Assembly: GCA_043812495.1 (NCBI GenBank) | Contig: JBDRMG010000008.1 | Span: 1,516 to 65,515 of the forward strand | Direction: 5' to 3' | Source of the DNA: Candidatus Omnitrophota bacterium | Lineage (GTDB): Bacteria; Omnitrophota; Gorgyraeia; Zapsychrales; JBDRMG01 | DNA: 64,000 nt | In this document: positions 8,614 through 53,050 of the stretch, piece by piece | How positions within the stretch are numbered: position 1 is the first letter of the stretch | How the letters are laid out: the number at the start of each line of letters is the position of its first letter | Translations under genes and position numbers: made by a program | Notes under the pieces: generated by a model | The model's input: the letters and a program-made list of their open reading frames with translations, nothing else | Database searches by the model: none | Told to the model about the DNA's origin: nothing

Positions 8614-9075
8614 ATGGACCCAAAAAAAATAGCGACGAACAAAAAGGCCTTTCGTGATTATTTTTTTAGCGAAAAATGGGAGTGCGGCCTTGAACTCAAA
8701 GGAAGCGAGGTCAAATCTCTGCGGGCAAGTGAGGTGAGCTTTACCGATAGCTTTGCGCGCGTCGAACAGGGCCAGGTGATTCTTTACAATCTGCATATTG
8801 CTCCGTATCAACAGGGCAGTTATTTTAATCTGGAACCGACTCGACCGCGTCGGCTTCTTTTGCATAAAAAAGAAATCATGAGAATCGAAACTCATATGTC
8901 CCAAAAAGGACTGGCCCTGATTCCGACACGTATTTATTTCAACAGACGTGGCCTTGCCAAAGTGGAGCTGGCCTTGGGCCGCGGCAAGAAGCTTTTTGAC
9001 AAGCGGGAAGACATCAAGAAAAGAGATGTCGACCGCGAGATCAAACGCGCCGTACGGCATCAGCGCAAGCGTTAG
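8614..9075 (+). CDS. smpB: SsrA-binding protein SmpB
   Basis: Conserved SmpB core (NKKAFRDYF...GLELKGSEVKSLR...LYNLHIAPY...RPRRLLLHKKEI...RGLAKVELALGRGKKLFDKR). The tmRNA gene lies immediately downstream. Confidence 0.9.
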   Translation: MDPKKIATNKKAFRDYFFSEKWECGLELKGSEVKSLRASEVSFTDSFARVEQGQVILYNLHIAPYQQGSYFNLEPTRPRRLLLHKKEIMRIETHMSQKGLALIPTRIYFNRRGLAKVELALGRGKKLFDKREDIKKRDVDREIKRAVRHQRKR

Positions 9076-9189: not shown

Positions 9190-9335
9190 TCGGGGGTGAC
9201 AAGGTCTCGACTCTGCTTCGCCCAAATGTTTTCACGTTGGGCTTCGCAGAGTCTTCACAGGCAATAATAGGCGAAGCAGCCCTACGAAGCTCCCAAACGA
9301 AAGTTTTGGAGCGAAGTGGGGTAAATATAGACTTT
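9190..9335 (+). repeat. Degenerate duplicate of the ssrA 5' end (GGGGGTGACAAGGTCTCGAC) fused to a copy of the ssrA 3'-flank hairpin element
   Basis: 9192-9212 matches the tmRNA 5' end (9354-9375) at about 20 of 23 positions. 9209-9330 aligns with 9754-9860 (CTTCGCCCAAATGTTTTC vs CTTCGCTCAAATGTTTC; CCCTACGAAGCTCCCAAACGAAAG vs GCTCTACGAAGCCAAACGCGAAGG). Confidence 0.65.
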
Positions 9336-9353: not shown

Positions 9354-9753
9354 GGGGGTGAAAAGGGTTCGACTTAGGTTCGACAGCGTATAAGTGGCAT
9401 GCGGAGGAAGCTTGGTAGGCCTCCTTAATCATCCAAGCACCAAATAAACGCAAAAGAAAACGCGTTATTACTAGCGAAAGCTAGCTCCATTGTTGAGCCT
9501 GTTTTCGCTGGCGAAACAGTCTCAGTTATTCGATAACTGAGCCCTCTTATCAGCAATGCCTGTGGGCTGATAAAAGGTCGCAAGCAGGCTGGTTTCGCCG
9601 GTTGCTTTCACTGGCGGAATAAGACTTAAGAAAGCTGGTCCTGACTACGTTTGTCTGTTTAGAAGGCCAGGATGAGATTCAAAAAATAGACTAAGCATGT
9701 AGAGGCTTATACACTGTAACCCAAGGACGCGAGTTCGATTCTCGCCACCTCCA
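9354..9753 (+). ncRNA. ssrA: tmRNA (ssrA)
   Basis: 5' GGGGGTGAAAAGGGTTCGAC and 3' ...GACTAAGCATGTAG...GGACGCGAGTTCGATTCTCGCCACCTCCA match the conserved tRNA-like ends of tmRNA (compare E. coli GGGGCUGAUUCUGGAUUCGAC ... GACUAAGCAUGUAG ... GGGUUCAACUCCCGCCAGCUCCA). Acceptor pairing GGGGGTG/CACCTCC. Immediately downstream of smpB. Confidence 0.85.
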
Positions 9754-9945
9754 TTCTTCTTCGCTCAAATGTTTCGTCTCCCTTCGGTCGACTGCACGTT
9801 TGAGCTTCGAAGAATAAATTCTGCCGAAGAAGAATGCTCTACGAAGCCAAACGCGAAGGACCCCGATGATATATCGGGGACGAAGCATTTTGGCGTAGTA
9901 GAGCACTATTCCTTTTCAATTCTTTCCATAAGACATAGTTACTTT

Positions 9946-10188
9946 ATGTTCATCGTCTACATCATCACAAGTTTAAAAGACCCTTCTAAACATTACGTTG
10001 GCTTTACGAAAGACTTAGATAGACGTCTTATAGCCCATAATGCTCGAAAATCACTCTTTTCTAGAAAGTACTCTCCCTGGAAGATCGAATCTTATATTAC
10101 CTTTACCGATGAGAGGAAAGCTATAGCATTTGAGAAGTACCTTAAGAAAGGCTCTGGCCACGCCTTCCTTACGAAACACCTTATCTAA
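9946..10188 (+). CDS. Small GIY-YIG nuclease superfamily protein (COG2827-like)
   Basis: MFIVYIITS...HYVGFTKDLDRRLIAHN...FTDERKAIAFEKYLK matches GIY-YIG plus the downstream conserved Arg/Glu. The longer ORF from 9769 overlaps the ssrA flank, so the start at 9946 is preferred. Confidence 0.65.
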   Translation: MFIVYIITSLKDPSKHYVGFTKDLDRRLIAHNARKSLFSRKYSPWKIESYITFTDERKAIAFEKYLKKGSGHAFLTKHLI

Positions 10189-13533: not shown

Positions 13534-14960
13534 AGAAACGGCCTCTTTTGCTAATTTTTCTTTGTGTTTTTGCGACAGCTAGCCTTGTTACTTACTCTTA
13601 TGTTTCTGCCCAAAATTCATCCGTACAACAAGAAAATGAAAAAAACCTATCTATCCAAGACTTCATTACCCTCGCGACAAAGAATGATACGGCATTTGAA
13701 GAAATTCTTATCGATGCCTTGAAGCTCAATTACCGCAAAGACCTAAACCTGCCGGCCCGTGATCTTGTTTTATCCGTTAAGGGGCAATATGATTTCTTTC
13801 TCAGCCAGGACAGGGAAGACCCGGCAGTCAGCGTATCGTTAAGCAAGCTTTTTCCCTTTACGGGAACGGAAGTCGAAACTTCTTATGGCCTTACTCCTTC
13901 GGCAAGCTCAGATTCAAGGACATCAGAATTTAACCTTCTCATTTCCCAGCCTATTGCCCAGAACGCCTTCGGGGCGGCCACGCGCCTTCAGGACAAAATT
14001 ATCGGCGTTGAAATCGATGTCATACGCTATCAAATCATAGAGGCTTATGAAGATTATTTGGCGACTTTGATTAATACTTATTACAACTGGTACTCGGCGT
14101 ATGAAAATTTAAAGATCAGCGAATCTTCCTATGAGCAAAATGAGAAACTGCTTGAGAATATGAACAAAAGGGCTGAAAGCAAGATTGCCCTGCCCGTTGA
14201 TGTCAATAAAGTCAAGCTGCTTGTTATCGGCAAGCAAGAAAATGTCATTGAGCTAGAAGAAGTTTATAAGAATTCGCTCAATCTTATTTACAAGGCTATT
14301 CGCTACGAAGGCGGTGATGAGCTGATTCCACAGGATCCGTCTGGCTTCCATTTATTTGACATTGATTTTGAGAACGATTACCAAAAGTTTAATCAAGGAA
14401 GCCGTACCTATGAAATCCTAAATCTATTAGAGAAGAAGAGCACTCTGGAAGTTAGCAAGAATGCCGACGGCTTGCTTGTCTCAACAAAACTTTTATTCGG
14501 CTATCAAGTCGAAGGCGATGAATGGCCGATCAAAAACGAAGACAATATGGTTTACGCAGGGATTTCCGTGGAATGGCCGTTTCCCGACCAAGTCGAACGG
14601 GCACAATACGAAACAGCAAAAATTGAACAAGACAAAAGACGTCTGACCAATCAAAACACCTACCTGGAGCTTTATACAACGCTTAAGAATATCCATTTAC
14701 AAATTCAAAGGGAAAAGGCCCTGATCAAGCTCGCCGATGAGAAAATCGGTTTGGCTGAAGCAGTTCTCAAAGACGAATCTCGGAACTATTCCTTTGGGAA
14801 GATTACGCTGAATGACTATATTGATGCCGTGAATAAGGTGGATACCAACAAATTCAATAAGATTCTCCATACCGTCCAGCTCAAGAAACTTCTTTTGGAA
14901 TGGCTTAGGCTAACCGATTCTCTTGTTGATAGAAGCATCCTCAAGAGCTCATCCCGTTAA
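13530..14960 (+). CDS. Outer-membrane efflux protein (TolC/OEP family)
   Basis: Signal peptide. Two OEP-like repeats with coiled-coil heptads. ATGA start overlaps the RND stop. Confidence 0.75.
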   Translation: MKKRPLLLIFLCVFATASLVTYSYVSAQNSSVQQENEKNLSIQDFITLATKNDTAFEEILIDALKLNYRKDLNLPARDLVLSVKGQYDFFLSQDREDPAVSVSLSKLFPFTGTEVETSYGLTPSASSDSRTSEFNLLISQPIAQNAFGAATRLQDKIIGVEIDVIRYQIIEAYEDYLATLINTYYNWYSAYENLKISESSYEQNEKLLENMNKRAESKIALPVDVNKVKLLVIGKQENVIELEEVYKNSLNLIYKAIRYEGGDELIPQDPSGFHLFDIDFENDYQKFNQGSRTYEILNLLEKKSTLEVSKNADGLLVSTKLLFGYQVEGDEWPIKNEDNMVYAGISVEWPFPDQVERAQYETAKIEQDKRRLTNQNTYLELYTTLKNIHLQIQREKALIKLADEKIGLAEAVLKDESRNYSFGKITLNDYIDAVNKVDTNKFNKILHTVQLKKLLLEWLRLTDSLVDRSILKSSSR

Positions 14961-15529: not shown

Positions 15530-16205
15530 CGGGTGCGGCGAGTGCATACCCGATTGTCCGGAAGGGGCCTTAAAGATCGTCGACGGAAAAGTTAAACTCA
15601 TGAGCGAATCCCTCTGCGACGGACTCGGCGCTTGTGTGGGGCGGTGCCCGGTGGGCGCATTAACTATTGAAGAAAGAGACGCCGAGGAATTTGACGAAGA
15701 AAAGGCTCAGGACAATATGGAAAAAATGCACAGCGATCCCTCTCATCAGACGTCACAAGCCCATCAGGGTTGTCCCGGGATGATGGCTCGTCAGTGGCAG
15801 GACAACAAATCGCAAGCCACCGCTACCGTCCAAGGCGGTTCCGCGTTACGCCAGTGGCCGATTCAGCTGAAATTATTGAATCCGCACGCACCCTATTTTC
15901 AGGACGCGGAGTTAGTGATTGCGGCCGATTGCGTTCCGTTCAGTTTTGCCAATTTCCACGAACGGTTTCTCAAAGGTAAAATCTTAATCATTTTCTGCCC
16001 CAAGCTTGATTTTGCCCATGAGGAGTATGTCCAAAAATTAACGGAAATCATCAAAAGCAACAACATTAAATCCCTGACGACCGTCCATATGGAAGTTCCC
16101 TGTTGTAACGGCACAACGGTCTTGGCCGAAGAGGCCCTAAAAAGTTCCGGGAAAAACTTAATTCTCAAAGATTACACCATATCTCTTCAGGGGGAGATTA
16201 TCTAA
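15489..16205 (+). CDS. 2x[4Fe-4S] ferredoxin-domain protein with a C-terminal Cys-containing domain of unknown function
   Basis: [12 protein letters not shown] and [12 protein letters not shown] ferredoxin motifs. C-terminal CPKL...VPCCNG. Confidence 0.6.
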
Positions 16206-16215
16206 AGGAAATTCT

Positions 16216-17853
16216 ATGAGCATGTTTTGTAACCAATGCCAGGAAACAGCAAAGAATACAGGATGCACCGTCAAAGGAATATGCGGAAAGGATGAGCGTA
16301 CATCCAATTTGATGGATTTGCTCACTTTTACTCTAACGGGTTTATCGCTTTATGCGGAGGAATCCGAAAAGCCGTTAGACCGTAAGTATGGTATTTTTGT
16401 CACGCAAGCACTGTTTGCCTCAATCACCAATGTCAATTTTGACGAAGAGAGGATTATCGCACTTATCCAGAAATCGTTGTTTTTGAGGGAAGAGCTTAAA
16501 AATCAAATCCTATGGACTCATAAAAATGAGCTTCTCCCGCCAGCCACGTGGACTGCTAAGTCGAAAGACGAATTCTTAAAGAAAGCAAAAGAAGTCAGCC
16601 CTATGTCTTTTGATCAAGATGAAGATGCGCGCTCCTTAAAATCCTTAATTCTCTATGGCTTAAGAGGGATAGCCGCATATGCAGATCACGCGGCTATCCT
16701 TGGGTTTTATAATGACCAAATTTTCTCCTTTTTCTTTAAGGCCTTAGCTGCCTTGCCCAAAACAATTCCCATCGATGAATTAACGAAAATGGTCCTTGAA
16801 ACCGGGGATATTGCCGTTAAGGCCATGGCTCTTTTGGACGAAGCCAACACATCGACCTACGGCCACCCGGAAATCACAAAAGTCAATATCGGCGTGCGCA
16901 AAAATCCAGGAATACTAATTTCCGGTCATGACTTAAAAGATATGGAAGAGCTCTTGAAGCAGACCGAAGGAACGGGTGTGGATGTGTACACGCACAGCGA
17001 GATGCTTCCGGCCAATTATTATCCGGCCTTTAAAAAGTATAAACACTTTATAAGCAATTACGGAAGCTCATGGTGGAATCAAAACAAAGAATTTGAATCC
17101 TTCCATGGGCCGATTTTAATGACAACCAATTGTATTACACCGGTCAAAGAATCCTACAAGCATCGTATTTTCTCAACGGGAATGGCCGGTTATCCGGGCG
17201 TCAAACATATCCTTGATCGAGAGGACGGAAAACAAAAAGATTTCTCAGAAATCATTGCGCTGGCAAAGACTTGTCCACCGCCTCAAGAATTAGAACAGGG
17301 AGAAATCGTCGGAGGATTTGCCCATCATCAAGTTTTGCAATTGGCGGATGACATTGTTCGGGCCGTTCAATCGGGGGCTATTAAACGGTTTGTCGTCATG
17401 GCCGGTTGCGATGGCCGTCACGCAACGAGAAATTATTTTTCTGAGGTTGCTCAAGGATTGCCCAAAGATGCGGTGATTTTAACCGCAGGATGCGCCAAGT
17501 ATCGTTATAATAAACTTAATTTGGGACATATCAACGGTATCCCGAGGGTCCTGGACGCCGGACAATGCAATGATTCTTATTCCCTAGCCCTTATTGCTTT
17601 AAAATTAAAAGAAGTGTTTGGTGTTAACGATATTAATGAGTTACCCATTTCTTTTGATATTGCGTGGTATGAGCAAAAGGCGGTCTGCGTACTTTTGGCT
17701 TTGCTCTCGCTGGGTTTTAAAGGAATCCGATTGGGTCCGACATTACCGGCCTTTGTATCGCCAAATGTATTGAAGGTTTTAGTAGAAAAGTTTGACATAA
17801 AACCCATACATAATGCTCGAGAGGACGTCGAGGCTATAATGGCGGGACGTTAA
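16216..17853 (+). CDS. hcp: Hydroxylamine reductase / hybrid-cluster protein
   Basis: N-terminal [23 protein letters not shown] Cys motif typical of Hcp. Length 545 aa. Conserved hybrid-cluster Cys/His/Glu positions towards the C-terminus. Confidence 0.85.
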
Positions 17854-18497: not shown

Positions 18498-18686
18498 TTT
18501 CGGATATTATTCTACTTTGCATAAGCAATGAAAATGATGGTATATGTCCTTCTTCGTCCGCCATTGTTTCGTTGGCGGACTCCGAAGGATTCCTCCATAG
18601 CCTTGGCGAAGGAGAACTTCGTAGAATATTCTCGTTGGAGTAATTTTCCGAAGCCTATACCGTTGCTTGCTATTGGTAAGGCGAAG
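18498..18686 (+). repeat. Structured intergenic repeat family 'R', copy 1 (contains an internal partial tandem duplication)
   Basis: Shares TATTCTACTTTGCATAA..CTTCGTAGAATATTCTC..CCGAAGCCT.TACC..GGCGAAGGAGAATA with 52932-53050. Copy 1 has an extra unit of about 70 nt. Confidence 0.8.
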
Positions 18687-18735
18687 GAGAATAGGATAAG
18701 TTCAAGTAATCTATGCAGATCCATAAGGGGGTTTT

Positions 18736-19479: not shown

Positions 19480-19483
19480 CTTT

Positions 19484-19570
19484 TCAATGAGGCCTGCGCT
19501 TATGGATGCCGCGCCCGCCATTGATTCAGTGGCGGGCGGGGCAGAACATAAGTGCATGGCCGAATTGACC
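19484..19570 (-). repeat. Modular palindromic intergenic element, copy B (minus orientation; inner hairpin carries the CCCGCCCGCCA/TGGCGGGCG module)
   Basis: The reverse complement reads GGTCAATTCGGCCATGCACTTATG-ttc-[hairpin]-tc-CATAAGCGCAGGCCTCATTGA. Confidence 0.8.
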
Positions 19571-28546: not shown

Positions 28547-28700
28547 AGCCCCAAGGGAATTTCTATCGATGGGGCTCACCCTGAGCAAGCCCAAAGGGCG
28601 AGCCGAAGGGTCTCTTACTAGGGATCCTTCGACTCCGCTCCGACTAGGGTCGGAGCTTCGCTCAGGATTTCGGGGTCGAAACACCACGACCCCTCAAATA
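28547..28700 (+). other. GC-rich multi-hairpin intergenic segment (candidate structured leader or ncRNA)
   Basis: Nested stems: GAGCCCC/GGGGCTC; CCTGAGCAAGC/GCTTCGCTCAGG; CCGAC-tag-GGTCGG; GGGGTCG/CGACCCC. Local GC is much higher than in the flanks. Confidence 0.4.
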
Positions 28701-28701
28701 A

Positions 28702-31380
28702 ATGATCTATTTGTTATCTAATAAAGGGACGAAAACAAAGTACCAAGCCAAGAAGCGCAAGGTCAAGGATTCGCGCGTTGATGCGTTCGACGACACCCAA
28801 ATCCCGCCCTTTAGGGCGGGGAAACGGGCGCCGCTCAGCATCAACCCTGAGCAAATCCCGGCCTTTAGGCCGGGGTGCGTCGAACGGGTTGATTACTCCA
28901 AGGTGATTGTCAAAAAACCCTGGGGCTATGAGTATTTGGTTTTTCAAAATGATTATGTGGCGATATGGATGCTGCAAATTATTCCGCAGCGTCGAACATC
29001 CATGCACTGCCACCCAGCCAAAAAGACCGGCCTCATTGTGTTATCCGGAAAAGCCAAACTCCATCATGTGGACGGCGCCCTTGAGCTCGACACCCTAGAT
29101 GGCGTCATGATCGACCCCGGAGTATTTCATTGCACCGAGGCCTTCAATCCTTATCCTTTAACACCTCAATCGGAAAACGGGATCTGGGTTATGGAAATTG
29201 AATCACCACCCATGAAAAGCGATTTGATCCGCCTGGACGATGCTTATGGCCGCAAAAATGAATCCTACGAAGGCCAAAAACATATGGTGCATGAACCGGC
29301 CAAGCGGCTTGAGTTTTCTGTTCCATCAAAGACAAAAATTAGCCATAAGAAATTTTTTAATTGTGATTTCAGTATTCGCCAAGGGTCCTTTAAGACAGAG
29401 CGTCCGCGCGACCATGCCCTTATTTCTGTGATCGGGAAAAATGCACGCGCCAAAAGCAATAATCCTTACTTAAAAATCGGCGCTTTAACAACATTCAAGG
29501 AGTTTGAGAATAAGACACGCCAGGAGGATTTAGGTTCTTATACTTTTCTTGTGATCGAAAGAAAAGAGCAGGTGATGAAGGTTGCGGATTATGTTTTTTC
29601 ATCCATCGCCGAGCTTGGCATCAAACAGGTTTTTGCTGTTTCAGGCGGGGGCGCGATGCATCTTGTGGATTCGCTCGGCCGCCATCCCAAATTGGAATAT
29701 ATTGCAACCTATCATGAGCAAGCGGCCGCGATGGCGGCTGAAGCTTACGCTCGCCTGTCTGATACACCAGGGGCTGCACTTGTGACATCAGGCCCCGGCG
29801 GAACAAATACCATCACCGGTGTTTGTGGGGCGTGGATTGATTCGATCCCTACGATTTTTATCTCGGGGCAGGTGACAACAGATACGCTTTTGCGGAAAAT
29901 GGGCCTGCGTCAATTCGGCATCCAGGAGGCGGATATTGTCAGTCTTGTAAAGCCAATCACAAAATATGCCGTAACGGTGACCGATCCAAAAACAATTAAA
30001 TATCATGTGCAAAAAGCTATTCATCTGGCGACGAGCGGCCGGCCCGGTCCGGTGTGGTTAGATATTCCGCTTGATGTGCAAAGTAAACTCCTTAACATTG
30101 ATGAACTGAAATCCTTTACGCCAAAGAAAGACACGCTGTCTTTGCAAGGCAAACAACTCAAAAAAGAAACCGCCAAAGCGCTGGCCCTTTTGAAAAAAGC
30201 CAAGCGGCCCGTTCTTATTAGCGGCTACGGTGTCCGCCTGGCTAAGGCAACAAATGAATTTCAAAAGCTTTTGACATTACTCAATATTCCCCTTGTGTCA
30301 TCGTGGACGTCGAGCGATCTTGTAGATACAAAACATCGGCTTTATGTGGGTCGAGGCGGCATTATGGGTGAGAGAGCCGCGAATTTTGCCGTGCAGAATG
30401 CCGATGTGCTTTTGATTATTGGCTCAAGGATGTCCATTCCTCAAGTAGGCTATAATTATCGCGCCTTTGCCCGCGAAGCCAAAAAGATTGTTGTGGATAT
30501 CGACAGTGTTGAATTAAAAAAGAAATCTCTGAAACCCGATCTTGCGATTCGTACCGATGCCAAAGATTTTATTGCGGAGTTAACACGTCAGTTTCAAAGT
30601 ACGCGCGTAAAACTTGGAAACAACCAATGGCGCGCAAAATGCCAAGGATGGAAAAAACGCTATCCGGTCGTTTTACCGGAGTATCGACAAAATAAAAAAG
30701 GTGTGAACTCATTTTATTTTATCGATGTCCTTTCGAAAAAATTAAAAAAGGACGCCATTGTGGTCACCGACATGGGAACAAGTTTTACCTGCACCATGCA
30801 GACCTTTAAGGTGAAAAAGGGCCAGCGTCTTTTTACCTCAAGCGGACACGCCTCCATGGGATTCGGACTTCCCGGGGCGATCGGGGCTTGCTTCGGCAGC
30901 GGTCGAAAAAAGGTCATTTGCGTGAGCGGAGACGGCGGTTTACAGATGAATATTCAGGAATTACAAACCCTTATTCATTATCGCCTGCCCGTCATTTTAT
31001 TCGTCTTGAACAACCAAGGATATCTGACGATCAAGCTGATGCAGCAAAATCATTTTGGGCGATATGTGGGTTCGGATGCCGGAAGCGGTGTGAGTTTTCC
31101 TGATATCGTCAAAGTGGCGCGGGCCTATGGTATCCGTGCGACAAAGATCAGTAATCAAAAACAATTACGCGGAAAGATCGACAGAATATTGGCCGAACGC
31201 GGACCGTTTGTCTGCGAAATTGTTATGCCCGAAGATCAACCGTTGATTCCAAGGGTCTCATCGCTCAAGAAACCAGACGGCACGATTATCTCACGGCCCC
31301 TGGAGGATCTCTACCCGTTTTTGAGCCGCGAAGAATTTGCGAAAAATATGATAGTCAAACCTTTTGAACCACTCAAATGA
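28702..31380 (+). CDS. Fusion protein: N-terminal cupin domain and C-terminal thiamine-diphosphate-dependent enzyme (acetolactate-synthase/YerE-like fold)
   Basis: Cupin core (WGYEYLVF...MHCHP...GLIVLSGKAKL). TPP-enzyme N-terminal domain (VFAVSGGGAMHLVDSL). TPP-binding GDGG...NN motif (VSGDGGLQMNIQELQT...VLNNQGY). The real start is probably near 28880, not 28702. Confidence 0.7.
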   Translation: MIYLLSNKGTKTKYQAKKRKVKDSRVDAFDDTQIPPFRAGKRAPLSINPEQIPAFRPGCVERVDYSKVIVKKPWGYEYLVFQNDYVAIWMLQIIPQRRTSMHCHPAKKTGLIVLSGKAKLHHVDGALELDTLDGVMIDPGVFHCTEAFNPYPLTPQSENGIWVMEIESPPMKSDLIRLDDAYGRKNESYEGQKHMVHEPAKRLEFSVPSKTKISHKKFFNCDFSIRQGSFKTERPRDHALISVIGKNARAKSNNPYLKIGALTTFKEFENKTRQEDLGSYTFLVIERKEQVMKVADYVFSSIAELGIKQVFAVSGGGAMHLVDSLGRHPKLEYIATYHEQAAAMAAEAYARLSDTPGAALVTSGPGGTNTITGVCGAWIDSIPTIFISGQVTTDTLLRKMGLRQFGIQEADIVSLVKPITKYAVTVTDPKTIKYHVQKAIHLATSGRPGPVWLDIPLDVQSKLLNIDELKSFTPKKDTLSLQGKQLKKETAKALALLKKAKRPVLISGYGVRLAKATNEFQKLLTLLNIPLVSSWTSSDLVDTKHRLYVGRGGIMGERAANFAVQNADVLLIIGSRMSIPQVGYNYRAFAREAKKIVVDIDSVELKKKSLKPDLAIRTDAKDFIAELTRQFQSTRVKLGNNQWRAKCQGWKKRYPVVLPEYRQNKKGVNSFYFIDVLSKKLKKDAIVVTDMGTSFTCTMQTFKVKKGQRLFTSSGHASMGFGLPGAIGACFGSGRKKVICVSGDGGLQMNIQELQTLIHYRLPVILFVLNNQGYLTIKLMQQNHFGRYVGSDAGSGVSFPDIVKVARAYGIRATKISNQKQLRGKIDRILAERGPFVCEIVMPEDQPLIPRVSSLKKPDGTIISRPLEDLYPFLSREEFAKNMIVKPFEPLK
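28797..28875 (+). repeat. Two tandem 24 nt hairpin repeats CAAATCCCG(C/G)CCTTTAGG(G/C)CGGGG separated by 30 nt, upstream of the cupin domain
   Basis: Read directly. They lie inside the annotated 5' extension of the 28702 ORF and are probably leader sequence rather than coding. Confidence 0.6.
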
Positions 31381-40176: not shown

Positions 40177-40692
40177 ATGGGAATTGTTCGATATATATAC
40201 TCACCTTTCTTCGGCTTGGCTGTGAGCATTATTGTTCAGGTGCTGATCCTCCGCTTCAACAGCCGTTTTAGCCTCTTGAAATCCATGGTGATTGGGTTTT
40301 TTTGTGGGTTTGCCGGTCTTATGATAATCGACATCGGATATAATGTATCCACCGCTTCAAGAGGAGAGCTCTTATTAAACCTGAATCTCTTTATTTATTG
40401 TCTGTGGGCCAATGTTTATTTTCATTTTGTGAATATGGGGGAAACGGCGCGGCGCATAAGAATTTTAAGAGAGCTTTATGAAGCTTCAGGCGGCCTGACT
40501 TTGGATGAGCTTCTTGAACGCTATAATGCCAAGGGGATCATTGAAAAAAGAATCGAACGATTAGTGCACAATGATCAGATTATTTTTAAGGAAGGGAAAT
40601 ATTATATTAAGAATCGATTATTATGGCTGGTCGCAAAGATGATTATTTCAATGAAGTTCATCTTTCTTGGTAAAAGAAGCGAATTTGATTAG
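40177..40692 (+). CDS. Small membrane protein (4 TM plus a C-terminal soluble domain), hypothetical
   Basis: ORF only. Architecture resembles the preceding gene. Confidence 0.5.
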   Translation: MGIVRYIYSPFFGLAVSIIVQVLILRFNSRFSLLKSMVIGFFCGFAGLMIIDIGYNVSTASRGELLLNLNLFIYCLWANVYFHFVNMGETARRIRILRELYEASGGLTLDELLERYNAKGIIEKRIERLVHNDQIIFKEGKYYIKNRLLWLVAKMIISMKFIFLGKRSEFD

Positions 40693-40705: not shown

Positions 40706-40765
40706 TCATTTGTCAGCAATAAATTTCAACCAAATCTGCCGGGTTCTCGGTCCGTCAAACTCCAT
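40706..40765 (-). pseudogene. Diverged duplicate of the last 19 codons of yjbQ (encodes MEFDGPRTRQIWLKFIADK* versus the true MEFDGPRTREVWLKFISD*)
   Basis: About 85% nucleotide identity to 40842-40895. The two copies are separated by the 73 nt hairpin element. Confidence 0.7.
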
Positions 40766-40838
40766 TCTTCTTCGCTCTCATGTTTTCACATGAGAGCTCC
40801 GAAGCAATTTCAAACTTTAGAGCGAAGCAGAACCTTTT
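40766..40838. repeat. Hairpin element of the TTCTTCTTCGCTC family, inserted between the true and duplicated yjbQ 3' ends
   Basis: TTCTTCTTCGCTCT...AGAGCGAAGCAGAA outer stem. Inner hairpin GCTCTCATG-ttttca-CATGAGAGC. The 18-mer CTCCATTCTTCTTCGCTC (40760-40777) is identical to 9749-9766 at the ssrA 3' end. Confidence 0.7.
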
Positions 40839-41234
40839 TCAATCTGAAATAAATTTTAACCAAACTTCTCTGGTTCTCGGTCCGTCAAACTCCATCAAAA
40901 AGATCCCTTGCCATGTTCCCAACTGCAGATTTCCGTTCTCCACGATAAAAGTCTGAGAAAAACCCATGAGGCTGCCCTTGATATGGGCATCGGCGTTATC
41001 TTCCGCATGATTAAATCCGAAATCTTGCGGCACGGTTTTCTTCAAGAAATAATGGATGTCCCGCTTGACATCGGGATCCGCGTTCTCATTGACCGTTAAG
41101 GCTGCCGTGGTATGAGGAGAGTAGACGACTAAAATCCCTGAGTCGCATTTTTCCTTGCGAAGATAGTCTTTGATGTCAGGTGTTAAGTCAATAATTTGCT
41201 CTCTTTGGGTTGTTGGAACGTTGAACTTATACAT
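40839..41234 (-). CDS. YjbQ/UPF0047-family protein
   Basis: Conserved UPF0047 segments (GILVVYSPHTTAALTVNEN...DAHIKGSLMG...LGTWQGIFLMEFDGPR). Confidence 0.8.
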   Translation of the reverse strand: MYKFNVPTTQREQIIDLTPDIKDYLRKEKCDSGILVVYSPHTTAALTVNENADPDVKRDIHYFLKKTVPQDFGFNHAEDNADAHIKGSLMGFSQTFIVENGNLQLGTWQGIFLMEFDGPRTREVWLKFISD

Positions 41235-43073: not shown

Positions 43074-44339
43074 ATGAAGAATAAATTATTGCTTCCTATC
43101 TTTTTATGCATGGGCGTTCTTTTTGTTTCTTCGCTGTCCTTCGCTCAAGGGGAGCAACAAGATATTTTAGGAGGATTTGTTCAAGAAGCGCTGGAACATA
43201 ATCCTCGAATCCAAGCAGCGCTTAATCGCTGGGAAGCTGCTCAGTATGCTATCGGACGTGTCCAAGGCCTTCCTGACCCTGTCGCTAGCTACGGGTATTT
43301 CGGGGAAAACGTTCAAACGAAGACAGGTCCCCAAGAGCAGAAATTCGGTTTTTCTCAAAAGATTCCATTCCCGGGTAAGCTCAATCTCAAAGGAAAAGCT
43401 CAAGGTAAACAAGCGCAAATATTGAAGGAACAATATGAAGGAACCCGGCGCGAAGTGATCAAAGAGGTCAAGCTAACCTTTTATGATCTTTATTGGATTG
43501 ATCAAGCTATCCGGGTAACGGATGAAGAAAAGGGCATCCTCGAAAACCTTGAGAGGGTTTCCCGCCGAAAGTATGAAACCAATCTGGCGAATCAACAAGA
43601 TGTCATTAAAGCCCAGGTCGAATTGTCTAAACTCGTCGATAAATTGTACCTTCTTAAGCAAAATCGGCAAAGTCTTCAAGCAAAAATGAAAAGTCTTCTC
43701 AACCGAACAGAGAATTTATCACTCGAAAATATTTCTCAGATTAAGGAACGGGATTACTCGTATACTCTCGATACATTAATGGCTTGGGCTGAGGAAACTA
43801 GACCGGAATTGTTGAGCGCGAATCTGGCGACGGAAAAAGCCCAATTTGAGAAATCATTGGCCCGCATGGATTACCTTCCCGATTTTACGTTTGGCGTAGA
43901 ATATATCGATATCGGCGGAGGCACAACGGCGCTTGCGGATGATGGCCAAGATGCCTGGATGGGTATGGTTTCCGTAAACATTCCTCTTTGGTTTGGCCGA
44001 TTAAATACGCAGCTCAATGAAAAAAAGGCAGATTTGAGAGCCGCGCAGAATTACGCTGACAACGTTAAGAATAGCGTGACATACGAAGTGCAGGATATTC
44101 ATTTTAAAATCCTCGCTTATCAAGATATCGTCACCTTATATGAAACGACCCTTATCCCTCAGGCCCAACAGGCTTTTGATGGCGCGAAAACAGGATATGA
44201 ACGCGGCCGGATCGATTTCCTGAATTGGCTGGATGCGCAGAGAACACTTTTACAGACGTGGCTTGCCTATTATAAGGCCGTGGCGGACTATCATAAATCG
44301 ATTGCTTTCTTAGAAAGAATCGTGGGTCGGGATTTATAA
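43074..44339 (+). CDS. Outer-membrane factor of heavy-metal efflux system (CusC/CzcC-like)
   Basis: Signal peptide. Duplicated OEP repeats. ATGA overlap with the csoR stop. Confidence 0.75.
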   Translation: MKNKLLLPIFLCMGVLFVSSLSFAQGEQQDILGGFVQEALEHNPRIQAALNRWEAAQYAIGRVQGLPDPVASYGYFGENVQTKTGPQEQKFGFSQKIPFPGKLNLKGKAQGKQAQILKEQYEGTRREVIKEVKLTFYDLYWIDQAIRVTDEEKGILENLERVSRRKYETNLANQQDVIKAQVELSKLVDKLYLLKQNRQSLQAKMKSLLNRTENLSLENISQIKERDYSYTLDTLMAWAEETRPELLSANLATEKAQFEKSLARMDYLPDFTFGVEYIDIGGGTTALADDGQDAWMGMVSVNIPLWFGRLNTQLNEKKADLRAAQNYADNVKNSVTYEVQDIHFKILAYQDIVTLYETTLIPQAQQAFDGAKTGYERGRIDFLNWLDAQRTLLQTWLAYYKAVADYHKSIAFLERIVGRDL

Positions 44340-44405
44340 GTTTTTATTGATTACAATGGATCGGAAGGATAATAAGAGAATTATCATCATTTAATTTGCT
44401 TACTT

Positions 44406-44559
44406 CCCCTCGTCCGCCATCGATTTTAGCAGTGGACTCGGGGTCAATTCGGCCATGCACTTATGTTTCCGTCAATTCGATAGAATCGAATTGACGAGAC
44501 CTCGCTAAATTTTAGAAAATTAGCGGACATTATCATTCCATAAGTGCAGGCCTCATGGA
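44406..44559 (+). repeat. Modular palindromic intergenic element, copy C (longest; inner hairpin GTCAATTCGAT/ATCGAATTGAC plus inserted CGCTAAATTTT/AAAATTAGCG module)
   Basis: 5' arm 44442-44465. 3' arm 44538-44559 (CATAAGTGCAGGCCTCATgGA). Ends 14 nt before the cusB-like start. Confidence 0.85.
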
Positions 44560-44573
44560 AAGGAGTATGAACC

Positions 44574-45839
44574 ATGAAGACAAAAGTGATTGTTTTGATT
44601 TTGCTTTGCGGACTCATGACGATGGCACTCTATGGAACAAAGGCGACGGCTGAAAATCCCGAAATCAATTACTATACCTGCGGTATGCATCCCAGCGTGA
44701 AGGTATCCCTCGAAGATTATAATAGAGGAAATCAAAGTTGCCCCATTTGCCATATGAATTTGACACCGGTCTATCAAGAAGCGAGGGTCATGCCGTCGAA
44801 AAAAGAACGGAAAGTTCTTTTTTACCGAAATCCGATGAACCCGAGCATCACGTCCAAGGTCCCGGCCAAGGATGAAATGGGCATGGATTATATTCCTGTC
44901 TACGAAGAAGGGGCACAAGAGACATCGACCCCACAAGCTTACATCGAACGTGTTATGGTTAAAGCTGATCAGGCAAAGTTAGCCGGCATTCAAACAGAAC
45001 CCGTAAGAAAATATCATCTTTTCAAAGAAATCCGAACCGTTGGGACCGTGGCCTACGACCCAGAAATGGCGGTGGCACAGGATGAATTTATTTCGGCTGT
45101 AGCGACCCTGGAAAAAATTCGGCAAGGAAAAATTTCCGATATTACCGAGCGGGCCGAAGCCCTGGTGAAATCCTCAGAAAGAAAGTTGCGTCTGCTTGGA
45201 TTAAACCAGTCCCAAATCGATGAATTGGCGCAGACACGAAGCATTCAAGAAAACCTGATTCTTCCAGAGGAAAAAATGTGGGTCTACGCAGAGGTCTATG
45301 AATACGATTTGCCGTGGATCAGCGAAGGAAACAAGATTACGATGACAACGGCTAGTCTACCTGGAGAAGAATTCTACGGCGTTGTGACATCCGTCAATCC
45401 CGTTGTAAATCCGAAAACCCGCTCCGTGACTCTTCGCGCGCAAGTTGATAATCCGGATTTAAAACTTAAACCCGATATGTATGTTGATGTCGTCGTAAAA
45501 AGCATGTACAAGGGGCCGCAAGGCGAAGAGATGATCCTGGCCGTACCCAAAGAAGCTGTTTTAGATACGGGAACAAGAAAGATCGTTTGGGTCGATGACG
45601 GTAATGGAACCTATGAAGGCCGGGAAGTGATCATCGGCCCGGAAGCTATCGCCATGACAGAGAAGAAAGAAATGGAGGCCTATCCCGTTCTGCAAGGTCT
45701 TCAAGAGGGCGATCAGGTTGTCACAAAAGGAAATTTCCTGATTGATTCGCAAAGCCAGATTACGGGAGTGGCGGCTTCGGCTTACAGCGGGGCGTTGGAT
45801 TCACAAAAGGAAAAGATAGCTCCGGCGCATCAACATTGA
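44574..45839 (+). CDS. RND efflux membrane fusion protein (CusB/CzcB-like) with N-terminal metal-binding motif
   Basis: N-terminal YTCGMHP...CPICHMNL Cys/His motif, then the HlyD-like lipoyl/beta-barrel region. Confidence 0.8.
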   Translation: MKTKVIVLILLCGLMTMALYGTKATAENPEINYYTCGMHPSVKVSLEDYNRGNQSCPICHMNLTPVYQEARVMPSKKERKVLFYRNPMNPSITSKVPAKDEMGMDYIPVYEEGAQETSTPQAYIERVMVKADQAKLAGIQTEPVRKYHLFKEIRTVGTVAYDPEMAVAQDEFISAVATLEKIRQGKISDITERAEALVKSSERKLRLLGLNQSQIDELAQTRSIQENLILPEEKMWVYAEVYEYDLPWISEGNKITMTTASLPGEEFYGVVTSVNPVVNPKTRSVTLRAQVDNPDLKLKPDMYVDVVVKSMYKGPQGEEMILAVPKEAVLDTGTRKIVWVDDGNGTYEGREVIIGPEAIAMTEKKEMEAYPVLQGLQEGDQVVTKGNFLIDSQSQITGVAASAYSGALDSQKEKIAPAHQH

Positions 45840-45880
45840 TTAATAAAGAAAAGGAAATATTATAGCTGCATTTGCTTAAT

Positions 45881-45982
45881 CCCCGCCCGCCATTGATTCA
45901 GTGGCGGGCGGGGTCAATTCGGCCATGCACTTATGTTCTCCGCCATAATTCGTGGCGGATCCATAAGCGCAGGCCTCATTGA
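45881..45982 (+). repeat. Modular palindromic intergenic element, copy D (GC hairpin CCCCGCCCGCCA-ttgattcag-TGGCGGGCGGGG plus arms)
   Basis: 5' arm 45912-45935. 3' arm 45961-45982. Ends 14 nt before the ATG at 45997. Confidence 0.85.
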
Positions 45983-45996
45983 GAGAAAGAATCTTC

Positions 45997-51018: not shown

Positions 51019-52947
51019 ATGACGGGTAAAACAGTCCATAAACTCCGGTTCAAAAATTTCAAGATTCGCCAAAAGCTCATCCTGATCCTGTTGGTCATTT
51101 CTTTGATTCCGCTTTTGGCCGTCAGCATCTATAATTTCTACTACGCAAAATCAGAACTTGAAAAGAAGGCCATTGACCGACTGAAGGCCGTAACCCTGGC
51201 GCGGGAAGCCCATATCAATCACTTCATCCAATTGCGGCAGGAGCAAGCCAAGCAAATTGCCGGCGGTTTTTTGCCTCGTCAGTTAAGAGAATCCGGCCTC
51301 AATGATCCGGAAATTGTTCGCGGTATCCAGGCTGATATTAATGCCGCTTTCTACGATTTAAATCTGGAACCCTCCGGATATTACAAAAATATCGATCAGA
51401 AGACAGACATTGAAATCATCGGCATATGGGATGTTCTCGGGACGATCATCGCCAATACCAACAGAGACCTGATCGGGAAAAAAATGCCCATTGAATATAT
51501 GCAGAATGTCTATAAACAGGGGACATTTTTCGGAGGGCTTGAGAAGGATCCTCTGACCGGAAAGAATTTCTTAATTATCTTAGAACTGATCCGCAATTGG
51601 AGAACAAATGAAATCGTGGGGGCTGTTTCATTAAAGATCAGAGCCAAGACGCTTAATGAAATCACAACCGCCGGAGAAGGCTTAGGCCAGACCGGCGAAA
51701 GCTATATTGTCGATAAGCATTACCGTATGATCACGCCGTCGCGTTTTGCGGATAATGCAATTCTCAAGCTTAGCGTTAAAACCGAAGGGACCCGGGCCTG
51801 CTTTCGGCAAACCAAAGCACCCACCCTCTACAAGAATTATCGGGATACCTTAGTCTTGGGCGTCCAAAGATATCTGCCGGATGAGGATTGGTGTCTTGTA
51901 ACGGAAATTAATGCCAACGAGGCCTTTGCGACGACAGAGGCCCTGCGTAACCGGACGCTCGTGATCGGAGGGCTTTTTCTTTTTGTTATTTTATTCTTGA
52001 CCTATAAAGCCACAGAGTCTTTTGTCCAGCCTATTATCAAACTGCGCAATGCCTCGAGTCAGGTGGCCCAGGGCGATTATGATGTTGTGCTTCATGAAGA
52101 TAGCCAGGATGAAATCGGAGAGCTCTCTAAAGTGTTCAATGAAATGGCCAAAAATCTAACCGCTTTCAAGTCGGAATTGGAAGAAAAAAACAAAGAGCTT
52201 TTTAAGAGCCTTGCGGTATCCACTCAACAGAAGAAGGAATTAAAGAAAGTCAACCAGGAGCTGGATAGTTTCGTTTATACGGCCAGTCATGATCTTCGCG
52301 CACCTTTGCGCGGCATTGCTTCCTTCGCCACTTTCTTAGAAGAAGATTACAAGAACAAACTTGACGATGAAGGGAAAGGCTATATTGACGAAATTCGAAA
52401 AGGCGCGACCAAAATGAACGCCCTCATCGAGGACTTGCTGTCCTTGTCCCGTATTTCCCGCATCAAGAATCCTTACGAAGATGTGCCGATCAGGCCATTG
52501 ATTGATTCCGTCTTGGAGCGCATCAAAGTCGATATCCAAAAGGAAAAAGTCCGCTTGATCATTGCGGAGAATTTGCCGACCGTTTACTGCGACCGCATTA
52601 AGATGGCCGAGGTGTTCTTGAATCTCATTAACAATGCGATCAAATTTTCCTCAAAAAACAACAAAGACCATCCTCAGGTGGAAATTGGCTATATGGCTGA
52701 GGATGACCATCATAAATTTTTCGTAAAAGACAACGGTATCGGGATTGATCCCAAATACCATGAACAAATATTCGGTATCTTTAAACGCTTACATACGGAC
52801 AAGGAATATGAAGGAACGGGAGCGGGTTTAAGCATTATTAAACGCGTAATCGATGATCACCACGGCAAAATTTGGATCGAATCGAAACTCGGACAGGGCG
52901 CCGCGTTCTTTTTTACGATCCCCAAGAATTTATTCTACTTTGCATAA
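51019..52947 (+). CDS. Sensor histidine kinase with periplasmic Cache-like domain, HAMP, HisKA and HATPase_c
   Basis: Two TM helices flank a periplasmic domain of about 270 aa. H-box SHDLRAPL. N, G1 and G2 boxes. Confidence 0.85.
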   Translation: MTGKTVHKLRFKNFKIRQKLILILLVISLIPLLAVSIYNFYYAKSELEKKAIDRLKAVTLAREAHINHFIQLRQEQAKQIAGGFLPRQLRESGLNDPEIVRGIQADINAAFYDLNLEPSGYYKNIDQKTDIEIIGIWDVLGTIIANTNRDLIGKKMPIEYMQNVYKQGTFFGGLEKDPLTGKNFLIILELIRNWRTNEIVGAVSLKIRAKTLNEITTAGEGLGQTGESYIVDKHYRMITPSRFADNAILKLSVKTEGTRACFRQTKAPTLYKNYRDTLVLGVQRYLPDEDWCLVTEINANEAFATTEALRNRTLVIGGLFLFVILFLTYKATESFVQPIIKLRNASSQVAQGDYDVVLHEDSQDEIGELSKVFNEMAKNLTAFKSELEEKNKELFKSLAVSTQQKKELKKVNQELDSFVYTASHDLRAPLRGIASFATFLEEDYKNKLDDEGKGYIDEIRKGATKMNALIEDLLSLSRISRIKNPYEDVPIRPLIDSVLERIKVDIQKEKVRLIIAENLPTVYCDRIKMAEVFLNLINNAIKFSSKNNKDHPQVEIGYMAEDDHHKFFVKDNGIGIDPKYHEQIFGIFKRLHTDKEYEGTGAGLSIIKRVIDDHHGKIWIESKLGQGAAFFFTIPKNLFYFA

Positions 52948-53050
52948 CCAATGGAAATAATAGTATCTGCTTCGTAGAATATTCTCCTCGGAATAATTCT
53001 CCGAAGCCTGTACCATTATGTTCCATTAGTAAGGCGAAGGAGAATAAAGG
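52932..53050 (+). repeat. Structured intergenic repeat family 'R', copy 2
   Basis: Aligns with 18498-18686 apart from a deletion of about 70 nt. The first 16 nt overlap the last codons and stop of the kinase gene. Confidence 0.8.

Follow-up and report, generated by a model that had tools for sequence, protein, structure and literature searches.

A 73-nt hairpin insert between two diverged yjbQ gene ends in Candidatus Omnitrophota: a possible gene-end-restoring recombination patch

Integrative elements such as e14 and phage 21 at icd, or ICESt1 and ICESt3 at fda, enter the 3' end of a gene and supply a substitute end, and CIMEs (cis-mobilizable elements) are integrase-less, deleted derivatives that keep attL and attR. 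Gene-end restoration has so far been known from kilobase-sized prophages, from integrative and conjugative elements (ICEs), as well as from mitochondrial endonuclease open reading frames (ORFs). In mitochondria, mobile endonuclease ORFs have made 'gene hybrids' (atp6 in Allomyces; atp6, atp9, cox2 and nad3 in Glomus), in which a foreign C-terminal end continues the gene in phase and is followed by the mobile insert and, downstream of it, by the native C*-terminal end (PMC3630166). The two ends differ mostly at synonymous sites, which has been read as horizontal transfer, and the insert carries a LAGLIDADG or GIY-YIG endonuclease ORF of 0.4-1 kb that drives its mobility (PMC3630166). Here we analyze a stretch of 64,000 nt from a Candidatus Omnitrophota bacterium (GenBank assembly GCA_043812495.1, contig JBDRMG010000008.1, positions 1,516 to 65,515), which we refer to as the window, in which two versions of the yjbQ 3' end flank a 73-nt insert built around a hairpin that we call E1. 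The locus has the same three-part layout as the gene hybrids, the closest one documented.

Two yjbQ ends around a 73-nt insert

The yjbQ gene occupies 40839-41234 on the minus strand as an intact 131-aa ORF (UPF0047/secondary thiamine-phosphate synthase family; Pfam UPF0047/YjbQ, E=3.7e-41), and the protein is annotated under that name in a Candidatus Omnitrophota metagenome-assembled genome (MAG). Its working end, tail A, comprises the last 18 codons and the stop (40839-40895, minus strand; MEFDGPRTREVWLKFISD and a stop) and reads ATGGAG...GATTGA from 40895 to 40839. Past this stop and the insert (40766-40838) lies tail B, an untranslated second gene end with its own stop (40706-40765, minus strand), whose sequence ATGGAG...GACAAATGA would encode MEFDGPRTRQIWLKFIADK and a stop, and which we term the echo. 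The initial 24 nt of the two copies, ATGGAGTTTGACGGACCGAGAACC, are the same letter for letter (40872-40895 in tail A and 40742-40765 in the echo, both minus strand), where shuffled sequences lead us to expect no match at all, and the repeat as a whole (53 nt, 85% identity) ranks first among the short-range direct repeats of the window. The echo directly abuts the hairpin and is offset by 76 nt from the real yjbQ stop, out of frame with it, and is therefore not kept by read-through.

The insert holds E1 and then CCTTTTT on the plus strand. E1 consists of a core hairpin (40767-40804) and a second right arm (40812-40832) that is complementary to the same left arm, with terminal inverted repeats TTCTTCTTCGCTCT and AGAGCGAAGCAGAA. 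It folds better than its shuffles both as 79 nt of DNA (z = -3.5) and within 201 nt of RNA context (z = -3.2). From the side of the gene (40838 to 40766), the yjbQ stop is followed by the spacer AAAAAGG and then by the hairpin. A previous reading of the window from its letters, to which we refer as the sequence-only reading, had reported the duplicated gene end and the hairpin between its copies; the duplication proves exact in its coordinates and far beyond chance, and the hairpin is real.

Tails A and B differ at 9 of 54 nt, yet at only 3 of 18 residues. All nine differences are confined to the last 30 nt of the repeat, and past the 24-nt core the tails are 70% identical. By codon position, the changes number four at the first, none at the second and five at the third, and they include a double synonymous exchange of AGA for CGG (Arg/Arg). 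When an equal number of random substitutions was simulated, so few amino acid changes with no stop were obtained at P=0.004. Because the divergence is of the coding type and the echo is out of frame, it accrued in different lineages: each tail took on its changes while in use as a gene end, and the two were joined later. Since the two ends diverged under coding constraint, one of them is an imported gene end. The sequence-only reading had taken the locus for the footprint of a 3'-end-targeting integrative or recombining element, and the constrained divergence and the imported end lend this support.

In two of the three nearest relatives that we examined, P0002 and P0003, YjbQ is 76-78% identical at the amino acid level; the yjbQ end of the former lies 10 nt from a convergent gene, and that of the latter overlaps one. 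In the third, P0005 (73%), a gap of ~43 nt separates yjbQ from the next gene. The insert was found in none of the three, and the yjbQ insert thus appears to be a derived state. The sequence-only reading would have been overturned by an insignificant similarity or by a duplicate standing in relatives as a conserved gene; the similarity is significant, and the relatives are entirely without the duplicate. The exact YjbQ sequence is absent from the contig index, and a fragment of the yjbQ tail gave 0 matches in 2.9 million viral contigs. A degenerate E-hairpin pattern had 120 matches in viral contigs, all noise, with a 5-bp inner stem in only 3 of them.

On the far side of the echo lies a convergent neighbor gene (40177-40692, plus strand; 171 aa, no Pfam match), whose stop is 13 nt from that of the echo. 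A terminator scan reports no intrinsic terminator for yjbQ, and on the strand of this gene ATGGAG comes after the hairpin. On the plus strand a T5 run comes after E1, and from their order E1 and the T-run could terminate the convergent plus-strand operon.

Gene-end echoes and E hairpins at other loci

To see how the yjbQ end is arranged elsewhere, we examined 80 genome loci and 80 metagenome loci of YjbQ relatives, which come mostly from distant phyla. No element at the yjbQ site was found among these ~160 loci, in which genome islands were not searched exhaustively. A second EFDGPR-encoding stretch occurs in only one of them, L004, from a single-cell genome with a YjbQ 67% identical to that of the window. 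Its yjbQ ends in VEFDGPRNRNVWLKIIGS and a stop, followed after 41 nt by EFDGPRQRQVWLKIIPQ and a second stop, and its repeat starts, at the EFDGPR motif, within one codon (3 nt) of where the repeat of the window starts. The two copies differ at 18 of 51 nt and 4 of 17 residues (P=5e-6), and the echo is likewise out of frame with the real stop (47 nt).

A broader scan covered 7,918 ORF tails of the collected loci, each searched for a downstream echo that ends in a stop of its own, and returned 7 matches against 0 in three shuffled controls. Four of the seven (L044, L073, L211 and L041) are tandem repeats or neighboring paralogues. The other three are the window, L004 and L009, all among this lineage's relatives. 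The last is a MAG with a YjbQ 63% identical, in which the echoed gene is ilvC (14704-14815, minus strand). This gene ends in MPWLKTKKLV and a stop; 46 nt follow, made up of 14 nt and a hairpin, CCCTGAAGCGAGCGCTTCGCTCTGCTTTAGGG (z=-4.7), and then a 33-nt echo. All 8 coding differences between the copies are synonymous, an outcome reached in 0 of 500,000 simulations (P<2e-6). A canonical terminator stands 3' of this echo, as expected if the region on the echo side is the original context of the gene. In all cases the distal end of the insert abuts the echo without a spacer, and 7-16 nt separate the working stop from the insert. The inserts of L004 and L009 both contain CTTCG/CGAAG palindromes, and that of L009 also has the GCTTCGCTCT of E1. 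A codon-position-aware repeat scan recovered ilvC of L009 and missed the yjbQ repeats of the window and L004, for which it was too strict; the rest of its output was tandem protein repeats and satellite arrays. No further echoes were found in additional strain sets of two Omnitrophota species.

Within the window, a comparable arrangement is seen at ssrA. The smpB gene stops at 9075; after it come a consensus promoter (TTGCAT-17-TATAAT) and, ~66 nt further on, GGGGGTGACAAGGTCTCGACT, a 21-nt displaced copy of the ssrA 5' end (9192-9212, plus strand), at the place where relatives have ssrA behind the smpB-side promoter. The copy has 3 mismatches to the working end, with 0 such matches expected by chance, and carries GGTCTCGACT like the 5' ends of relatives, where the working ssrA has GGGTTCGACT. 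An E hairpin, E3, abuts the displaced copy, and a second, long hairpin (H2; 9280-9321, minus strand), with a CGAAG/CGAAG internal loop and related to the E model on the opposite strand, and a 31-nt AT-rich stretch lead up to the working ssrA (9354-9753, plus strand). This gene, encoding the transfer-messenger RNA (tmRNA) with its CCA not encoded, keeps ~16 nt of a leader of its own, which resembles the leader in L288. In relatives with an SmpB 72-74% identical, ssrA follows the promoter after 36-70 nt, with no hairpins. The ssrA 5' end thus shows the structure and polarity of yjbQ: displaced copy, E hairpin, working terminus. At the 3' end, another hairpin, E2, takes the place of the CCA that relatives encode in ssrA, and no second copy of the ssrA 3' end was found within the window; E2 merely abuts the real one. 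The sequence-only reading had seen the same hairpin family at both ssrA flanks, as we do (E3 core, 9209-9253; E2 core, 9753-9815), each time beside a duplicated gene terminus. The duplicated terminus stands up at the 5' end and has no counterpart at the 3' end, and the single mechanism that it had proposed for yjbQ and ssrA is accordingly plausible for the 5' flank, with its shared polarity, and does not extend to the 3' flank, where nothing is duplicated.

Some further features surround ssrA. The tag peptide that ARAGORN predicts, EPSYQQCLWADKRSQAGWFRRLLSLAE and a stop, ends unlike usual tags, and the resume codon is probably misplaced. About 190 nt downstream of ssrA, behind E2 and a hairpin H4, an 80-aa protein consists of a GIY-YIG nuclease domain only (9946-10188, plus strand). 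A truncated GIY-YIG remnant also follows ssrA in L288 (15750-15860), where ssrA is not beside smpB, and ssrA and GIY-YIG may, judging from this proximity, form a linked unit. In L290 (5680-6726) and L291 (5602-6648), a tyrosine integrase (Phage_integrase) starts ~280 nt after ssrA, so that a classical tmRNA-gene island is present within the same lineage.

The window contains four E copies, all on the plus strand, where Markov shuffles give ~2 weak background matches each. In addition to E1 (40766-40838; recognized by covariance model and fold), they are E2, which starts right after the tmRNA discriminator base (9753-9833, core 9753-9815), E3 (9209-9279, core 9209-9253, second right arm 9270-9279) and E4 (18547-18616 with 27 nt beyond the hairpin, core 18546-18590). 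The outer stem is pyrimidine-rich, of the CTTC/GAAG type, and opens into a symmetric internal loop, which reads TTC/TTC or TTC/TCC and is closed by a G:C pair. The inner stem, 6-10 bp long, is wholly different in sequence between copies while its complementarity is kept. The loop measures 4-23 nt, and beyond a spacer the left arm has a perfect complement once more, in a second right arm. In the alignment of E1-E4, 7 of 17 pairs change on both sides and 91% of the cells are paired, which 0 of 500 shuffles reach; folding z-scores run from -3.1 to -3.5. With a covariance model, the four copies are recovered at E<=2e-11 and, on the opposite strand, H2, H4 and the leader hairpins at 18642 and 52995 at E=3e-6 to 0.03. 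The same model finds nothing in 1.07 Mb from other phyla, and among Rfam covariance models only tmRNA and tRNA pass thresholds, with nothing better than E about 1 at the hairpins. Clusters of CTTCG/CGAAG were tried as a family signature and abandoned, being swamped by G+C-rich coding sequence.

Outside the window we found a single E-type element, in L286 (8799-8923, minus strand). Its arms, CTGCTTCGCCC...GGGCTTCGCAG, are as in E3, its ~90-nt loop has a hairpin of its own, and it stands ~40 nt upstream of a tRNA-Leu(CAG). The tRNA-Leu of the window is without an E element, and the family is therefore insertion-polymorphic between relatives. E4 with its 27 nt is a clean 70-nt insertion into the repeat at 18507-18693, as seen against the uninterrupted paralogue at 52930-53046; it has no target duplication, and it follows that the E family inserts, or once did. 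These two repeats, 84-88% identical, each combine a promoter-like stretch with a structured leader and precede two unrelated genes, for a membrane protein and a response regulator. E1 and E2 have 18 nt in common letter for letter, among them the 6-nt flank CTCCAT. The left flanks are CTCCA for E1 and E2, CTCGA for E3 and ATATG for E4, and in this set of four copies only, the flank shared by E1 and E2 suggests a target preference, though that of E4 differs. Taken together, the family appears to consist of lineage-specific, strand-biased, insertion-prone structured elements.

Other repeats lie apart from these loci. A modular repeat of ~130-190 nt occurs at 2735-2877, 44377-44562 and 45853-45985 on the plus strand and at 19480-19570 on the minus strand, just upstream of genes, for a response regulator and for two parts of efflux pumps. 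The conserved flanks, GGTCAATTCGGCCATGCACTTATG ... CCATAAGTGCAGGCCTCAT, are able to pair and enclose hairpin modules that vary by copy, of which the CCCGCCATTGATTCAGTGGCGGG hairpin is also present by itself at 18552 and 54008; the repeat has no Rfam match above threshold. Two adjacent ORFs (43074-44339 and 44574-45839), both of 421 aa and different in sequence, are each followed by a copy. At 28579-28665 and 28798-28875, a long imperfect hairpin with CGAAG/CTTCG internal motifs stands just upstream of an 892-aa ORF and two 24-nt copies of CAAATCCCGSCCTTTAGGSCGGGG, 54 nt apart, lie within the annotated 5' part of this ORF; the true start of this ORF may be further downstream. In another Omnitrophota species, L292 has intergenic tandem arrays at 13822-14249 and 15864-16316 (89-91-nt unit, ~5 copies, 93-95% matches), the first of which is 268 nt, or three units, shorter in the strain L294.

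Origin of the displaced gene ends

The explanation that we favor, and hold tentatively, is an element-associated recombination patch that restores the gene end and has the hairpin at its joint. One of the two yjbQ ends would have been made in the yjbQ of another lineage and would have arrived joined to E1. Recombination of this foreign patch into the 3' end of yjbQ would have kept the gene whole and left the resident end in tandem, with only the upstream end translated and the downstream end displaced as the echo. E1 sits exactly at the joint, where it abuts the echo, and with its short spacer to the working stop it would belong to a natural unit of gene end, spacer and hairpin. We infer that the hairpin defines the joint and is the active agent; the element would take along the piece of gene next to it in its earlier host and land at the homologous position, next to CTCCA (plus strand). 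The same 5-mer precedes E2 at the tmRNA 3' end, and a target preference for it is likewise something we infer. Formally, the product equals the Campbell or site-specific integration, within the 24-nt core, of a tiny circle of gene tail and hairpin. Such units would measure 130 nt in the window, ~95 nt in L004 and ~79 nt in L009, sizes so small that double-stranded circles and integrases are improbable; integrase chemistry would not work on so stiff a molecule as a double-stranded circle of 130 bp. They would fit a single-stranded intermediate, as with HUH-type hairpin elements, or a linear imported fragment ended by a hairpin. Because it brings along its own copy of the gene end, the insertion would be neutral and could persist, and the echo would give homology on both sides, aiding further spread by ordinary recombination. 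An element-associated mechanism is favored because the same yjbQ codon was struck twice, because an echo accompanies two of the window's four E copies in the same polarity, because E1 and E2 share their flank and because the phenomenon clusters in this lineage, with four cases in ~0.45 Mb of its DNA, whereas >2 Mb from elsewhere yielded none of the hairpin type.

Several observations weigh against this explanation. E2 and E4 have no duplicated terminus, and duplication is therefore not an obligatory product of E insertion. The E covariance model does not match the inserts of L004 and L009, and that of L004 is not significantly structured (z=-0.9); the echoes therefore do not depend on a single hairpin family, which leaves room for the hairpin as a passenger. 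Our reading of the window's ORF translations, with Pfam run on six ORFs, revealed no recombinase, transposase or HUH enzyme, and its sole nuclease-like ORF, the 80-aa GIY-YIG domain near ssrA, is 30 kb from the yjbQ insert. The 90% cluster of the window's YjbQ has one member and no strain with an empty site is on record, which leaves mobility at the yjbQ locus hypothetical. The tails are alike in codon usage (-16.7 and -17.0) and the relatives too distant, so that either tail could be the foreign one. Finally, the cases number three or four in all, two of them found through a search directed at yjbQ.

Two of the alternatives also invoke foreign DNA. The locus could stem from a one-off accident of horizontal transfer, with a homologous join on the gene side, an illegitimate one on the other and the resident tail left behind, whether by homology-facilitated illegitimate recombination or by break repair copied from foreign DNA and aborted at a hairpin; the hairpin would have stopped an exonuclease or polymerase and so set the end of the imported piece. 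Such an accident explains the foreign tail, the order of stop, spacer and hairpin and the unrelated hairpins at the joints of L004 and L009, and it calls for no dedicated enzyme, in keeping with the window, where none is visible. It does not, however, lead one to expect a yjbQ boundary that recurs within 3 nt in two lineages, the same polarity at the ssrA 5' end, the CTCCAT flank common to E1 and E2, or the concentration of cases in this lineage's DNA, and no microhomology is visible at the joints of hairpin and echo. We regard it as unlikely, if a serious contender. The insert could also be the decayed remnant of a larger mobile element, either a tyrosine-integrase island, like those at icd and fda, or a homing endonuclease gene that stands free, like those of the mitochondrial gene hybrids; the yjbQ 3' end would have served it for attachment or homing, and it would have brought a replacement end; its interior would have been deleted, leaving attL and attR 73 nt apart, and the hairpin would be a leftover or later-arriving DNA. 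Elements of this kind produce such a layout, in which the identical core lies on the edge toward the gene, the tails have diverged and the foreign end is in frame, and a site-specific enzyme would be apt to strike the same conserved codon, at the EFDGPR motif, twice independently. Integrase islands are present at ssrA in the relatives L290 and L291, and a GIY-YIG ORF lies beside ssrA here, as does a degenerate one in L288. Yet the GIY-YIG protein of the window is a bare 80-aa catalytic domain with no DNA-binding domain, no yjbQ-tail fragment turned up in the viral contigs, and the insert is a complete, well-folded member of a repeated family and not random debris. With three independent cases that have no ORF and 41-73 nt left, three near-total interior deletions would be needed, and we find this explanation doubtful, if likewise a live one.

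We give each of the remaining alternatives little weight. A direct repeat flanking a hairpin with inverted-repeat ends, in a family with four dispersed copies, looks like the work of a MITE (miniature inverted-repeat transposable element), and a MITE with a very long target duplication, the second origin named in the sequence-only reading, or replication slippage at the hairpin could have duplicated the end in situ, with drift thereafter. The unused copy should then hold most of the changes, ~70% of them peptide-altering, whereas all three cases show coding-type divergence and not drift (P=0.004 in the window, 5e-6 in L004, <2e-6 in L009); moreover, E4 inserted cleanly without a target duplication. 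We therefore reject an in situ origin, by a MITE or by slippage, as highly improbable. The echo, with its intact frame and own stop, might instead function in place, as an alternative C-terminus reached by read-through or bypass, as the template repeat of a diversity-generating retroelement (DGR), which also puts a second gene 3' end behind a hairpin, or as a partner in regulatory pairing. The offset from the real stop, 76 nt here and 47 nt in L004, is out of frame, which rules out read-through or bypass, and the layout is missing from nearly all relatives. As variable and template repeats of a DGR the tails were rejected as well: the mismatches involve all bases in either direction, not only adenines, there is no reverse transcriptase ORF nearby, and the repeat measures 57 nt against ~100-150 nt in DGRs. 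A functional echo accordingly has a very slim chance. Least credible of all is an assembly artefact, by which a single contig came to hold the yjbQ end of two strains. The source is a MAG and its tails differ at the strain-to-species level, as such a join would have it, but the tails share 24 nt only, and a mis-join there gives one tail, not both in tandem with a junction of hairpin and core; the layout also occurs in the single-cell genome L004 and the MAG L009, with copies too diverged for amplification chimeras.

If the recombination patch that we favor holds more widely, Omnitrophota and their neighbors might harbor ORF-less hairpin elements, ~40-130 nt in length, that enter conserved genes (yjbQ, ilvC and ssrA) at their ends and do them no harm, each with a substitute end from its previous host and with the displaced native end as a homology arm. 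Each would be a minimal 'self-healing' homing-like element moved in trans via a single-stranded intermediate. We put this forward as speculation and think it rather unlikely as a whole. Were the hairpin the active agent, it would be the smallest known mobile unit to repair the gene that it interrupts, and gene-end restoration would occur without an integrase or endonuclease encoded inside the element. Patches of this kind turn the final codons of conserved genes into chimeras, by which phylogenies and strain typing can be led astray, and leave short pseudo-ends that annotation pipelines ignore. They would mark recent DNA exchange between uncultured Omnitrophota lineages, with the echoes as a dated record of how far donor and recipient had diverged (about 17%, 27% and 35% of nucleotides across the three cases).

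Comparison with known mobile elements

Among small structured elements, REP (repetitive extragenic palindromic) sequences and REPINs, together with hairpins derived from IS200/IS605 (palindrome-associated transposable elements, PATEs), are moved by Y1 HUH transposases. They insert by a short specific sequence without target duplication, via single-stranded circles that fit ~100 nt. The E hairpins are like them in being small, extragenic and imperfect in their stems. The known elements occur in many copies with a strand bias; the E copies, few for this comparison, all four lie on the plus strand, and E4 has no duplication. Unlike them, the E core has no REP GTAG head, though neighboring H-type hairpins carry CGTAG, and neither a Y1 transposase nor a RAYT (REP-associated tyrosine transposase) was seen in the window. 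To our knowledge, REP and PATE elements do not carry gene ends.

In integrons, a short cargo is followed by attC, a single-strand recombination hairpin with paired boxes, an unpaired central spacer, a variable loop and a crossover at its base. The combination of cargo and structured hairpin is common to both systems. E1-E4, in contrast, have no R''/R' boxes (RYYYAAC/GTTRRRY), an integron integrase and an attI array are both missing, and the target lies within a housekeeping gene.

With the integrase-type elements, the yjbQ locus shares gene-end direct repeats as flanks, a core at the gene-proximal edge, diverged tails and a gene that stays functional. It differs in size and gene content, as those elements run to kilobases and have, or at one time had, an integrase gene; between the yjbQ repeats there is no integrase gene or remains of one, only 73 nt without an ORF. 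The gene hybrids, for their part, are set apart from the yjbQ-type inserts by the size of the latter (41-73 nt), by their lack of an ORF and by their bacterial host. We do not place the yjbQ case in the gene-hybrid or integrase-element families, as the defining enzyme gene is absent, and as a CIME it would at most be a candidate, no related autonomous element having turned up at this site in the viral contigs or the ~160 yjbQ loci. In its layout it rather resembles a miniature, ORF-less bacterial analogue, of ~0.1 kb, of the elements that carry a substitute gene end.

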